In this document: piece after piece, positions 3,308-6,287 of the stretch
Layout: every line of letters begins with the position of its first letter
Position numbering within the stretch: position 1 is the first letter of the stretch
IMG/VR virus record: IMGVR_UViG_2703718826_000004
DNA length: 25,494 bases
Origin: a virus
Taxonomy: Duplodnaviria; Heunggongvirae; Uroviricota; Caudoviricetes
Strand: one strand, 5' to 3'
The notes under the pieces: generated by a model
The model's input: the letters and a program-made list of their open reading frames with translations, nothing else
Databases searched by the model: none
What the model was told of the DNA's origin: nothing
Made by a program: the position numbers and the translations under genes

Positions 3308-3883
3308 CTACGGCAGTGCTGGCCATTCAATATCCTGTGCAGTTGACGTATCAACACGGTTCAGCAATACCCGATACTTTTTCCATGCTTCCAGCAACGA
3401 GATTTCTTCCTCCGTTGCGATTTCCAGATCTGCAGCATCCTGAAGCGGCGCAATATGCTCACTGGCTACCTGCATCAGGTTGTTTTTTGTTTCTTCCGCC
3501 TCCCGGATCCGGAACAGTTTTTCTGCTTCCGTATCCTTCACCCAGGCTGTGCCGTTCCACTTCTGAAACTCCCCTTCCGGCGATAACCAGGTAACATTTT
3601 CCGGTAACGGACCGAGTTCAGAAATAAATAACGCGTCGCCGGAAGCCACGTCATAAACCGTTTTACCCCGATGATCTTCAACGAGATGCCACGATGACTC
3701 ATCACTGTTGAAAACAGCCACGAAGCCAGCCGGAATATCTGGCGGTGCAATATCGGTACTGTTTGCTGGCAGACCTGTATGAGGCGGAATATATGCATCA
3801 CCTTCACCAATAAATTCATTAGTTCCGGCCAGCAGATTATAAATTTTTATGGTCCGTGGTTGTTCACTCATTCTGAATGCCAT
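3308..3883 (-). CDS. tfaQ: tail fiber assembly protein
   Basis: 191-aa ORF typical of lambdoid Tfa; its start overlaps the stf stop. Confidence 0.9.
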
Positions 3884-5868
3884 TATGCAAGCCTCACAAT
3901 ATAGTTAAATGCGATGTTTTTGACGGTGTTTTCCGCGTTACCAGCAGCGTTAACGGTGATGGTGTGTCCATGTGAACCAATCGCAACCGAGTGCGTATGC
4001 GCACCAATACCTACAGTATGTGCGTGTGCACCTGCGCTTGCAGCAGTACCCGATACAGAGTGCGTATGAGCGCCTGCAGAAGAAGTGTTAACACTGTATT
4101 TAGAATAATCAGGTGATCCACTTCCCGGAGCACCTTTGGTGCCACCTGAAACAAATGTTATCGAATGGGTATGTGCACCGGCTGAAGCAGCCGTACCGCT
4201 AACACTATGGGTATGCGCCCCGGTGTTATTCGTGGATTTAGTGCCGTAATCAAACGACGATGTGGTTTTCGTCCCCAAATCCGTACTGGATGCGCTGGCG
4301 CTGTGGGTGTGCGATTTAATGCCGTCCTGTTCCTGAGACAATACGGCCCGACCACTGGCAGGTTTGCCCTTAATCGTCCAGCCACGCATATCAGGGATCA
4401 CGCCTGACGGATAAGCGGCTGCAAGTTTCGGGTAAGCAGATTTGTCAAAAGTCTGCCCCTGCATCAGGGCATAACCAGACGGAACGGTATCTGATGGCCA
4501 CGGGATTGGTGCACCGACTGGGTAGCTTTCTGGTGGAAGATTTTTCGAGGTATAAACTTCTGCCCAGTCTTCCTCAAAACCATAGCCATCTCTTGAGGAA
4601 CGGTAGAACAGACCTCCATTTCTGTAATGCGCCTTCATCTGCAATGTCCGGCAACTTCCGACTCCGGTATAGAAGTTAACCAGAATATAGCTGTTGCCAG
4701 AGCGGGTGACATTGTAAGCGCCTGATTCGGCATTCCAGGGAACGCCACCATCCGCATCGGCATATGTATCCGTTGCCCTTCTGGCAAAAGCAGCCACATG
4801 CGCGGCGGTTAAAGTAATATCTTTGGAACCATCAAACTCAACACCAGAAACCAGTCTTGGCGTTTGCAGCTTTGTTGCTGTTAATGCATTACCGTTCAGA
4901 CTTGCGGACAGTTTGGTTCCAATAACCAGTTCGCCGGTTGCGTTATCAATAGCAAACGGTCTTAATGTATTCCAGCCACCATAAACATCACCTTGATTGG
5001 TAAGCAGCAGGTAAGTTTTAGCGCCATCATTACGCCATAATGCACCATACTCCCCACCTATCATTCGAATCTGATTACCACCACGCGCTACAATTTCGTC
5101 TGTGGCAAAAAGTTTTTTGCACGACAAGTTATCGTTAACGATTAACGAATGAGACTCATAAAAACCACGCCCACTCTTAAAATCAAGGATAACGTCCGCC
5201 GCGATACATTCAGTCGCTGGATTTGTTGCCCCAAACTTATAGGTCGTATCATTAACAACGAGATCAGCACCAGGTGCGGATATTGACAGGCCATCTTCGA
5301 TAAACGCAAAAACAGGGAAAGCAGCGCCATCAACATAGAACACAGAGCGCAAATCATCGCCCTTATTACTCATCATTATTGAGTGGATGGCTCGTTCATT
5401 GTTTTGATATTGCCAGAACATTCCATAAGCATAACGCCCCCTGTCAGTCCAGCCACCAGGCATAACAAATCCGTTAAACTCGCAGTTATTCATCGGATCG
5501 CCTGCGGTTCGCGGTGCCGTGGTGATAATGACCCTTGATGCCAGTTCGCTTACTGAGCCAGCAGAACGCATAACAACAACAGGGTAATATTTTCCAGATG
5601 TTGCACCCGCAGGAGCGTTAACCCGCACATAACGCATACCACGCTTATCAGCAAAGTCTGTTTTACTGACCGCGTTAATGTTGTTCAGGAAGCGTCCCTT
5701 ATCGGGTATATCAGCGCCGTTCTGGTCTTTCTGCAGACGTTTCTCTGCATTGTCATAGGCTGATTTTACTGCCTTTGGCGTTGCCGCCAGCGTTTCAGAC
5801 GTACTGTTGGTCGCACTGCTGAGCTGTACTATCCCCTTTTTCGTCGTACTTGCATCCTCAAGCGCCAC
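3883..5868 (-). CDS. stfQ: side tail fiber protein, 5'-truncated remnant
   Basis: 661-aa ORF from a GTG, with Ala/Ser/Thr-rich repeats, GAHTHS repeats and the C-terminus [22 protein letters not shown] typical of lambda Stf. Hand translation shows Stf-like sequence continuing in frame upstream to about 6167 with no start codon. Confidence 0.8.
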
Positions 5869-6167
5869 GGCGGATGCAATATCCTCTGCCCGTTTAGCTG
5901 CTGTCTCGGCGCGCGTTGCCGCGGATTCCGCCGTACTTTTGCTCTGTGCTGCCGCCGTCGCACTGCCAGCTGCCTCTGTCGCCTTCGTGGATGCTGTCGT
6001 GGCGCTGCCCTTCGCTGCTGACGCCTGTCTGGTCGCCTCATCTTTTGAAGCTGACGCCGATGATGCCGATGACGCCGCCGAACTGGCGGACGATGCGGCA
6101 GCCGTTTTTGAGGATTCTGCGCTGGTTTCCGACGCTTTCGCGTTCGTCTCGGATGTCTTCGCTGCGG

Positions 6168-6287
6168 TACGGAAGTGGCCGTAAACTCCACTCTCCGTCC
6201 GTCTTTCTGTACCGTTGCCACCCGTTTTCCTGTCATCAGGTCATGCAGTGCCGCACGGGCAGCGGCAAGTTCTTCCTGTCGAGTCAT
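6168..6287 (-). pseudogene. W: head-tail joining protein gpW, first 40 codons only, joined by deletion to stf sequence
   Basis: The ORF at 5829..6287 begins [40 protein letters not shown], matching recalled lambda gpW 1-40, then reads stf DNA out of frame. The ATG overlaps the terminase A stop, as in lambda. Confidence 0.7.

Follow-up and report, generated by a model that had tools for sequence, protein, structure and literature searches.

A deletion scar joining gene W to the side tail fibre gene stf in a cryptic Qin prophage of Escherichia coli, probably formed in two steps

The closest described system is the prophage Qin of E. coli K-12 MG1655 (nohA-stfQ-tfaQ-pinQ, b1545-b1548), in which the late operon has been collapsed by deletion onto a 5'-truncated stf gene, followed by intact tfaQ and pinQ. 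In this strain the small terminase gene Nu1 (nohA, 189 aa) is joined to a much shorter stfQ (320 aa), with A and W both missing. The undeleted gene order, Nu1-A-W-B...J-lom-stf-tfaQ-pinQ, is found in the complete Qin of strain ATCC 8739 (NC_010468.1, 2286438-2310245), although its stf carries another mosaic allele in the central part (87-93% identical to the one studied here, or unalignable). An inactivated stf is also known from laboratory lambda. In lambda PaPa, a frameshift splits the gene into orf-401 and orf-314 (stf/tfa comprising these and orf-194), but there the gene is otherwise complete and the phage viable. In the searched text of a study on 'grounded prophages' (Ramisetty and Sudhakari 2019; PMC6379469), 48% of 638 strains are reported to possess Qin, its size ranged between 11,280 and 97,450 bp in 189 strains, and strain-specific loss and gain within Qin are described. 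The words stfQ, nohA and 'tail fiber' are missing from that searched text, and neither nucleotide-level breakpoints nor a recurrent stf endpoint were encountered there. Many other independent deletion junctions exist in the Qin prophages of other strains, K-12 included.

The DNA analysed here (IMG/VR record IMGVR_UViG_2703718826_000004; 25,494 nucleotides, hereafter the window) is, on the basis of its sequence, a cryptic lambdoid prophage Qin of E. coli integrated in ydfJ. It shares with K-12 the insertion in ydfJ, the host-side ydfI, the prophage end ynfT-ydfK-pinQ-tfaQ and the flanking gene order, and the genes of this locus carry the same annotation in nine complete genomes. The Qin-specific cargo and lysis genes (ynfO, ydfO, gnsB, ynfN, cspI, rzpQ, rrrQ, essQ, cspB, cspF, the Q-like ydfT, rem, hokD and relBE) are present as well. 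Over the shared parts, identity to K-12 Qin amounts to 99.2-99.9% (MG1655 1631002-1635076 against window 1-4074, 99.2%; 1635839-1645000 against window 8201-17362, 99.88%; window 16362-19745 against the next MG1655 stretch, 99.2%). Unlike K-12, the window has retained cos, the full Nu1 and A genes, the first 40 codons of W and 760 codons of stf. The features framing the scar are:

1..1284, minus strand: ydfJ', host MFS transporter gene cut by the Qin insertion, i.e. the prophage-host boundary (open reading frame, annotation of relatives)
2620..3210, plus strand: pinQ, serine DNA invertase adjoining tfaQ (Pfam Resolvase and HTH_7; named pinQ in relatives)
3308..3883, minus strand: tfaQ, tail fibre assembly gene, intact (Pfam Caudo_TAP; named tfaQ in relatives)
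6284..8209, minus strand: terminase large subunit A, full-length open reading frame of 641 aa (Pfam GpA_ATPase and GpA_nuclease)
8184..8729, minus strand: terminase small subunit Nu1 (nohA), full length, 181 aa (Pfam Phage_Nu1, positions 1-164 of 164)
8907..8918, minus strand: cosN cohesive-end sequence GGGCGGCGACCT, with lambda-like flanks

On the minus strand the order cos-Nu1-A-W is collinear with lambda, and the A protein occurs with exactly the same sequence in many complete lambdoid prophages. Lambda 119-2751 aligns with window 8800-6169 at 98.4% identity up to base 2 of W codon 40. The last base of this codon (A, 6168) gives the allele GTA, the rarer one at this codon, which is also found in ATCC 8739 and in the sister loci L018 and L019 described below. 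Homology to W stops at 6168 and homology to stf begins at 6167, so that the breakpoint lies exactly between these two bases, within the interval of about 6165-6170 proposed by the initial annotation. The scar itself is made up of the following elements:

6168..6287, minus strand: remnant of the head-tail joining gene W, codons 1-40 (residues identical to lambda gpW 1-40; Pfam gpW)
6167..6168, no strand: deletion junction, W ...ACT TCC GTA / CCG CAG CGA... stf, at which the flanking homologies meet flush
5829..6287, minus strand: chimeric open reading frame of 152 aa, W(1-40) with an arginine-rich tail of 112 residues from stf in the wrong frame (open reading frame and translation)
3883..6167, minus strand: remnant of the side tail fibre gene stf (alignment to the intact stf of L002, L003, L005 and L028; Pfam)
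3883..5868, minus strand: 661-aa open reading frame in the stf frame, the first available start being GTG 5868 (open reading frame list)

The junction contains no filler bases, and the microhomology that the initial annotation proposed to look for is absent (0 nt). Beyond the junction, the stf DNA enters at position 2 of codon 356 (the intact gene of strain ET670 has 1,132 codons) in a frame other than that of W. The open reading frame beginning at 6287 is identical to lambda gpW over residues 1-40 and then continues with PQRRHPRR... to a stop at 5829, in line with the out-of-frame run described by the initial annotation, and no in-frame gpW sequence follows residue 40. The Pfam gpW match covers residues 1-42 only, corresponding to profile positions 1-41 of 66, whereas full-length gpW (PF02831, about 68 aa) would span the whole profile. 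The open reading frame is thus a gene fragment, not a member of the gpW family, and an exact look-up among the genes of the contig collection gave no match to its 152-aa product. The ATG of the truncated W overlaps the stop codon of A (ATGA), and the sequence suggests that translation of the chimera could be coupled to that of A. The frames of the W fragment and stf are offset by one, the former ending 39 nt beyond GTG 5868. Neither a slippery site nor in-frame continuity, as expected for a programmed frameshift or a deliberate fusion with Stf, was found; at the A-run near 5840, the only place inspected by eye, no canonical X XXY YYZ heptamer was seen in the frame of the W fragment.

Numerous lambdoid phages and prophages have stf genes that match the DNA from 6167 downwards, and the portion covering the stf C-terminus and tfa is 87-93% identical to lambda 21245-22538. 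The remnant encodes the fibre repeats and the trimerisation and collar domains of a lambdoid Stf (Pfam Phage_fiber_2, Gp34_trimer, Collar and Phage_fiber) and is followed by tfaQ, whose start sits at the stf stop codon. By contrast, the N-terminal third of the protein, by which it attaches to the tail, is missing together with the gene's own start codon (lambdoid Stf is named 'prophage tail fiber N-terminal domain-containing protein' in RefSeq). Between TGA 6243 and GTG 5868 the stf frame contains no ATG, GTG or TTG, the sole near-cognate codon being ATT 5880. A Shine-Dalgarno-like GAGGA 13 nt upstream of GTG 5868 is poorly placed, and no promoter-like site was found on this strand from 5868 to 9200. 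The earlier statement that stf sequence runs from about 6167 without a start codon into the 661-aa frame, and could be translated only from the internal GTG if at all, therefore holds: no in-frame start with a ribosome-binding site precedes 5868. Judged from these signals, a product of the remnant would have to come from the weak GTG 5868 and its transcription from late-operon read-through across Nu1, A and the W fragment. The remnant is probably best regarded as a pseudogene with an intact tfaQ behind it, even though an equivalent frame of the same length and with the same start position is annotated as protein-coding ('phage tail protein') in the RefSeq record of strain LD39-1.

Comparison with the complete Qin of ATCC 8739 (L028), to which window 6168-11167 is 99.6% identical, revealed the extent of the loss. 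Window positions 6168 and 6167 correspond to positions 5000 and 23026 of that prophage, and the missing 18,025 bp extend from the remainder of W through lom and also take in stf codons 1-355. This bears out the initial reading that the remaining head and tail genes and the 5' end of stf are gone. Since all of the head and tail genes are lost, neither a particle nor a fibre can be built. In lambda, a frameshift interrupts a gene of a functional phage, whereas here the 5' third of stf and all upstream structural genes have been deleted.

The view that one deletion removed this DNA is, on the other hand, probably wrong. Three sister loci, one in GCA_019538995.1 and two in SRA assemblies (L018, L019 and L024), possess a junction of B codon 193 to stf. 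They differ from the window by only one to three mismatches per flank, chromosomal flank included, and share with it the W allele and the 661-aa frame. Against L015, a contig 100% identical to window 1-11868, L018 and L019 show three mismatches in 8,285 bp spanning the chromosomal genes ydfJ, ydfI and ydfZ, while the other Qin junction types differ from L015 by 24-80 mismatches over about 6.3-8.3 kb, in a comparison confined to junction types. The sister loci retain the complete W gene, codons 1-193 of the portal gene B and 53 more nucleotides of stf. Removal of L019 4986-5701, exactly 716 bp, yields the window sequence, and the gap is unambiguous. These 716 bp form an uninterrupted native stretch of W (codons 41-68), B (codons 1-193) and stf (53 nt) that insertion could not have restored, and this fixes the direction of the change. 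Because the sister strains are nearly identical to the window and the two stf endpoints are only 53 nt apart, the sequences suggest, as the simplest account of the junction, a later and small deletion spanning an older B|stf junction of about 17.3 kb.

The ancestor would have carried a full lambda-type late operon (cos-Nu1-A-W-B-C-D-E-FI-FII-Z-U-V-G-T-H-M-L-K-I-J-lom-stf-tfa). In a first step, an illegitimate deletion of approximately 17.3 kb may have joined portal codon 193 to stf by means of a 2-nt CA overlap, which is present at the older junction (L028 5664/22972 for L019). This state would be the precursor that persists in the sister strains. In a second step, the 716-bp deletion would have taken the remaining W codons (41-68) together with the B stub and 53 nt of stf, leaving W codon 40 (GTA) flush against stf codon 356 with no microhomology. 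A short direct repeat of which one copy is kept, the mark of microhomology-mediated slipped-strand deletion, was not found on comparison of the window with L019; CTTCCG and TCTG repeats occur near the 716-bp join but are displaced from it. Two other routes were discarded. An in-frame W(1-39)::Stf fusion mediated by CTTCCG and later shifted by a 5-nt insertion disagrees with the GTA codon 40 and the clean 716-bp gap, and the LD39-1 type (A|B477|stf) cannot be the ancestor since the sister lineage of the window keeps 53 nt of stf absent from LD39-1. Taken together, the data make it very likely that this region is a dead scar left in a cryptic Qin by deletions of about 17.3 kb and then 716 bp.

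How the DNA was broken is a separate question, as the stf endpoint of the window recurs elsewhere. Two recurrent breakpoints enclose one short sequence:

6156..6167, minus strand: 12 nt, CCGCAGCGAAGA, between site 0 (6168/6167) and site +12 (6156/6155)

At site 0 (CTT^CCG), stf has been joined to six different upstream partners, namely W codon 40 in the window, B about codon 477 in LD39-1, Nu1 about codon 147 (L016), a Dam methyltransferase gene (L030), a head-module gene at codon 3 (L036) and Rz codon 51 (L045). At site +12, exactly 12 nt downstream, the partners are three others: codon 11 of M (L038), codon 56 of A (L033) and a gene for a replication protein (L034). Each site is represented by an unambiguous example with zero microhomology, the window at site 0 and L038 at site +12. 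The prophages concerned are Qin, one adjoining proBA, one adjoining a GGDEF gene, and others. Of the 21 junction types whose discovery did not depend on the site, five lie at site 0 and three at site +12; if endpoints were uniformly distributed, some bin would contain five or more with a probability of 4e-4 to 1e-2, according to bin width. It is therefore conceivable, if still tentative, that the stf endpoint is non-random and that CTT^CCGCAGCGAAGA^CAT repeatedly undergoes site-specific double-strand breakage, possibly with a 12-nt stagger, after which the downstream end is kept and the upstream end is resected to a variable extent before rejoining. A little more doubtful is the general form of this proposal, according to which lambdoid stf genes hold a specific break site with two positions 12 nt apart, at which independent deletions end, always keeping the downstream side; the survey took in only junctions that keep the downstream part of stf, and the 12-nt spacing was noticed after the fact.

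One candidate cause would be a terminase-like cut with a 12-nt stagger and a protected end, but the responsible nuclease is still only hypothetical. In our alignments, likeness to cosN in register is low (6/12 in the overhang, 11/36 with the flanks) and the nick contexts differ. A lambda-type cos, with cosN-like nicks and with cosB R sites and an IHF site to the right, was not found at the stf site, where the only R-like match is one of 7 nt in the wrong orientation. Nor is a hairpin or other stable structure predicted at the hotspot on either strand (z-score 0.6). Inspection by eye for a pseudo-cos, Chi, a Pin crossover site or type IIS sites brought up nothing that fits convincingly, and none is claimed. 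Moreover, a part of the junctions may have arisen by slippage at earlier ones; L016, for instance, can be derived from an L027-type junction by TTCCG repeats 42 nt apart. In that case the events are not fully independent. Most 19-mer hits from a metagenome scan for site-0 junctions were fortuitous and lay in unrelated environmental DNA; the relevant results were only L045 (Rz|stf) and one low-quality intact stf. A site-specific break concerns the mode of deletion and is compatible with the two-step history, the 716-bp deletion then being one such event.

The recurrence of the endpoint also bears on the reading of the scar as a single deletion of about 18 kb straight from a complete prophage, from W codon 40 to stf codon 356. 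As independent deletions of other prophages end at the same stf position, a direct hit there is not implausible, and the net difference from ATCC 8739 Qin is one contiguous gap of 18,025 bp. The number of events by itself does not discriminate, as two sequential deletions and two independent ones in the lineages of the window and L019, from a very recent intact ancestor, require the same number of events in the tree. Nevertheless, a single deletion would demand an intact Qin of the 45-kb class in that very recent common ancestor and two independent large losses, whereas the sister intermediate, with one to three SNPs per flank, has its stf endpoint 53 nt away and a clean 716-bp difference; the remaining Qin junction types are far more distant from L015. 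A single deletion thus appears unlikely, and two successive deletions are the preferred history.

It might be argued that the remnant is still alive, a truncated Stf of 661 aa made from GTG 5868 being expressed with TfaQ and exapted, e.g. as a surface-binding protein that hinders phage adsorption. Neither the 661-aa frame nor tfaQ has internal stops, the identical 661-aa protein is retained behind several different upstream junctions, and a precedent has been reported in StfE2, a short chimeric Stf fragment of prophage e14 that blocks T2 adsorption in K-12 following PinQ-driven inversion (PMC12529663). However, the non-ATG start, the poor Shine-Dalgarno sequence and the absence of a promoter-like site speak against expression, SNPs among the prophage copies are so few that an open frame is uninformative on selection, and stf is cut much further downstream elsewhere (K-12 stfQ, 320 aa; P15-25, break at window 5701). 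We consider this role very unlikely and regard the remnant as a probable pseudogene.

Outside the window, a look-up of the 661-aa frame led to the junction only in GCA_001575835.1 and possibly at one similar place that it listed. Contig LONL01000044.1 of that assembly, possibly the window's own source, carries it base for base and is 100% identical over window 1-11868. There were no occurrences in 5,426 complete E. coli genomes, in the GTDB species representatives or in JGI metagenomes (the latter two with a gapped pattern, which would also catch a clean junction), and the L019-type and L016-type junctions were likewise missing from complete genomes. An assembly artefact, which this absence and the repetition of stf sequences among the prophages of single genomes could suggest, is nonetheless hardly credible, since the junction has a 0-nt overlap and no repeat at its breakpoints, unlike a k-mer collapse, the collinear public contig is listed under two samples besides the similar place, and analogous junctions are common in finished genomes.

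The scar represents ordinary decay of a prophage; in other strains other junctions are found. In itself it is of minor importance, adding a further strain-specific scar to those of a cryptic prophage whose size is known to differ greatly between strains. For annotation, it follows that the 152-aa frame should be read as a W fragment followed by nonsense and the 661-aa 'phage tail protein' as a 5'-truncated pseudogene candidate. Since close relatives preserve the probable intermediate, the locus may serve as a worked example of the stepwise erosion of prophage morphogenesis regions. A wider potential lies only in the recurrent stf breakpoint. If it is real, some of the deletions that inactivate prophages would have a defined molecular cause, and a site-specific nuclease or transposase-like cut, not random illegitimate recombination, would drive part of prophage decay.

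The window spans the left two-thirds of a defective Qin-type lambdoid prophage that sits in the transporter gene ydfJ of E. coli. Genes were assigned from the ORF list, Pfam and a cos search, and from how RefSeq annotates nearly identical stretches of nine complete genomes, K-12 MG1655 among them. Along the minus strand, in falling coordinates, lysis and csp genes are followed by ynfO, ydfO, cos, Nu1/nohA, terminase A, the junction, tfaQ, pinQ, ydfK, ynfT and a truncated ydfJ (ydfJ').

Features at and around the junction (coordinates, strand, identity and basis)
8918-8907, minus: cosN GGGCGGCGACCT (cos search)
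8729-8184, minus: Nu1/nohA (ORF list, Pfam)
8209-6284, minus: full-length terminase A (ORF list, Pfam)
5829-6287, minus: chimeric ORF with W(1-40) (ORF list, lambda gpW identity, Pfam)
3883-3308, minus: tfaQ (ORF list, Pfam, RefSeq relatives)
2620-3210, plus, opposite strand to tfaQ: pinQ (ORF list, Pfam, RefSeq relatives)
1284-1, minus: ydfJ', truncated host gene (ORF list, RefSeq relatives)

A full-length IS009 Rfam match (RF02111, 221.7 bits) lies within the tfaQ coding sequence (3342-3540, minus strand), and two Rfam cspA-thermoregulator matches on the same strand (10791-11176 and 13685-14077) correspond to the leader regions of cspI and cspB, cold-shock genes carried by the prophage. At the far end, the immunity and division-inhibitor block of K-12 Qin (ydfX, dicC, dicA, ydfABC, dicF, dicB, ydfD) has no counterpart in the window (19745-21907, 22150-24335), and DicF was not matched there. 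Its place is taken by a 437-aa transposase-like ORF (HTH and rve_3; 19561-20874, minus strand) and an Rfam match to the sok antitoxin RNA (20948-21119). The ydfE-like exonuclease ORF (21870-23855, 661 aa), disrupted by IS2 in K-12, is intact and IS2 is absent. The integrase ORF (24199-25494) extends past the end of the window.

The ORF at 5829-6287 comprises the first 40 residues of lambda gpW followed by 112 further residues, and its Pfam gpW match is confined to residues 1-42. Window positions 8800-6169 are collinear with lambda 119-2751 (98.4% identity), the alignment ending with the second base of W codon 40. This codon is GTG in lambda and GTA in ATCC 8739 and the sister strains (W of the closest relatives: ...GCC ACT TCC GTA TCT GAC...); hence, the A at 6168 is the last base of the GTA allele and not an orphan base. 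Because this A belongs to W, the join lies between 6168 and 6167 with neither filler nor shared bases, the window reading ...GCC ACT TCC GTA^CCG CAG CGA AGA CAT CC... where intact stf sequence (L002, L017, the sister locus L019 and L028, the complete Qin of ATCC 8739) reads ...GAGGTCTGCTT CCGCAGCGAAGACATCC... From 6167 downward the DNA matches side tail fibre (stf) genes from numerous lambdoid phages and prophages, with 93-100% identity. The break follows the first base of stf codon 356 (TCC), a count that is the same in the 1,132-codon ET670 and the 1,007-codon ATCC 8739 alleles.

The stf frame is in phase with GTG 5868 and runs upstream across the junction into W DNA as far as a TGA at 6243. 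Between these positions it contains no ATG, GTG or TTG, the sole near-cognate codon being ATT 5880; the only Shine-Dalgarno-like element for GTG 5868 is GAGGA, 13 nt upstream. Thus the initial annotation, which described gpW as leaving its frame after residue 40 and stf as lacking a start codon, is borne out: neither an stf start with a ribosome binding site upstream of 5868 nor an in-frame continuation of gpW was found. The loss of the remaining head and tail genes and of the stf 5' end, claimed in the same place, is likewise evident, since none of these genes is left and Stf is deprived of its start codon and its 355 N-terminal residues (the RefSeq 'prophage tail fiber N-terminal domain'), while W is truncated at residue 40.

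The assumption of one deletion, however, is probably wrong. The Qin prophage of E. coli ATCC 8739 (NC_010468.1), at the same locus, is essentially complete (Nu1, A, W, B, C, D, E, FI, FII, Z, U, V, G, T, H, M, L, K, I, J, lom, stf, tfaQ, pinQ). What the window lacks relative to it is 18,025 bp in one piece (L028 5001-23025), which a single direct deletion could have removed. A look-up of the window's exact 661-aa stf ORF in public assemblies yielded a contig (L015, GCA_001575835.1, LONL01000044.1) 100% identical to window 1-11868 and three sister loci (L018, L019, L024) with only 1-3 mismatches on each side. L018 and L019 differ from L015 by 3 mismatches in 8,285 bp, a span including chromosomal ydfJ, ydfI and ydfZ, while other junction types show 24-80 mismatched positions. 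The sister loci retain a complete W (68 aa) and B codons 1-193, and their stf, which follows, begins 53 nt further upstream than that of the window; removing 4986-5701 (716 bp) from L019 gives the window, otherwise unchanged. Since the 716 bp consist of uninterrupted native sequence from W, B and stf, the longer form must be ancestral. The sister junction maps to L028 5664/22972; about 17.3 kb were deleted there, and the two ends overlap by 2 nt (CA). On this comparison of loci, the most economical history is two sequential deletions, a large one of about 17.3 kb joining B to stf and a second one of 716 bp engulfing the first junction, which leaves a single direct event improbable. Two SNPs, at 5608 (stf remnant) and 7166 (terminase A), seem private to the window lineage, as the window and L015 differ there from every related locus aligned.

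A simple promoter scan found no promoters on the stf strand between 5868 and 9200, and the region is presumably transcribed only by late-operon read-through across Nu1-A. The chimera W' (152 aa) should be translatable because its ATG overlaps the stop codon of A (ATGA). Translation of the stf remnant from GTG 5868 would be weak at best; RefSeq names an ORF of the same length and start position in LD39-1 'phage tail protein', which is a gene-caller default. A role for truncated Stf proteins is not absurd, since StfE2, a chimera from e14, is reported to block T2 adsorption (PMC12529663); this analysis gave no support for such a role of the window's stf ORF. The packaging initiation module (6284-8930) is apparently intact, with cosN in lambda-like flanks, Nu1 (181 aa) and a terminase A (641 aa) that is the same protein as in complete prophages, while portal, capsid and tail genes are absent. 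An active terminase without anything to package could cleave chromosomal cos.

The decay of Qin is repeated and independent, with many junctions in different strains and almost no SNPs within the prophage.

Other Qin junctions (| marks the join)
ET670: truncated A, part of lom, then the whole of stf
GmM062: A|stf
P15-25: A|stf, at window 5701
1303: A|E, FI and FII retained
2018-10-1CC: Nu1-A-W-B (~205 codons)|stf, near window 6023
LD39-1, 30COLEC, NCTC9066: A511|B, followed by B477|stf
L016, L021: Nu1|stf
VREC0864: Nu1|stf, stf starting 33 nt further upstream than in the window
K-12: nohA|stfQ, stfQ being 320 aa long

It seems typical for a lineage to have undergone several deletions in succession. 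In LD39-1 (L001 3669-6000) A codon 511 is joined to mid-B, and L038 (2586-4922) carries a 778-aa ORF with portal (B) and tape-measure (H) C-terminal Pfam domains, then M(1-11) joined to stf. Three distinct junctions of Nu1 with stf (L026 4130-4330, L027 4130-4400) have Nu1 endpoints within about 20 nt, stf endpoints within about 75 nt and microhomologies TTCCG, AACAGGC and GGAAA; at least one of the pairs can be accounted for by a short slip that occurred later across an older junction.

The window's stf endpoint is shared with other partners in other prophages. Six upstream partners meet stf at CTT^CCGCAGCG (site 0, between 6168 and 6167), and three more exactly 12 nt downstream, at GAAGA^CATCCG (site +12, between 6156 and 6155), a spacing spotted post hoc.

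Partners at the recurrent stf breakpoints (site, partner, loci, microhomology where noted)
Site 0: W codon 40, window, 0 nt
Site 0: B ~codon 477, LD39-1, CTT
Site 0: Nu1 ~codon 147, L016 and L021, TTCCG
Site 0: Dam methyltransferase, P0001 and L030-L032
Site 0: codon 3 of a gene after a capsid gene, P0030, L036 and L037
Site 0: Rz codon 51, L045
Site +12: M codon 11, L038 and L039, 0 nt, unambiguous
Site +12: A codon 56, L033, CA
Site +12: replication protein, L034

The downstream stf side is always the retained one, the survey comprising only junctions that keep it. Among the 21 junction types from searches not conditioned on the site (400-nt span), site 0 accounts for five and +12 for three. 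Were endpoints uniformly distributed, some bin would hold at least five with a probability of 4e-4 (5-nt bins) or 1e-2 (12-nt bins); the junctions may not all be independent, as some may derive from others via short slips. The L016 junction, for instance, could have come from one of the L027 type by way of TTCCG repeats spaced 42 nt. No hairpin was predicted at the recurrent stf site, and its likeness to lambda cosN is weak (6/12 bases in register, different nick contexts). The most interesting reading of the recurrent endpoint, albeit a doubtful one, is that the DNA is broken there in a staggered, site-specific manner and the downstream end is protected.

Wide variation in Qin size between strains is described in an earlier publication (PMC6379469), and this kind of feature is therefore well known. 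The junction itself is a strain-specific scar; the cryptic prophage that bears it is known, and the feature is ordinary and of little interest in itself. The recurrent stf breakpoint is the sole aspect that merits a follow-up census.
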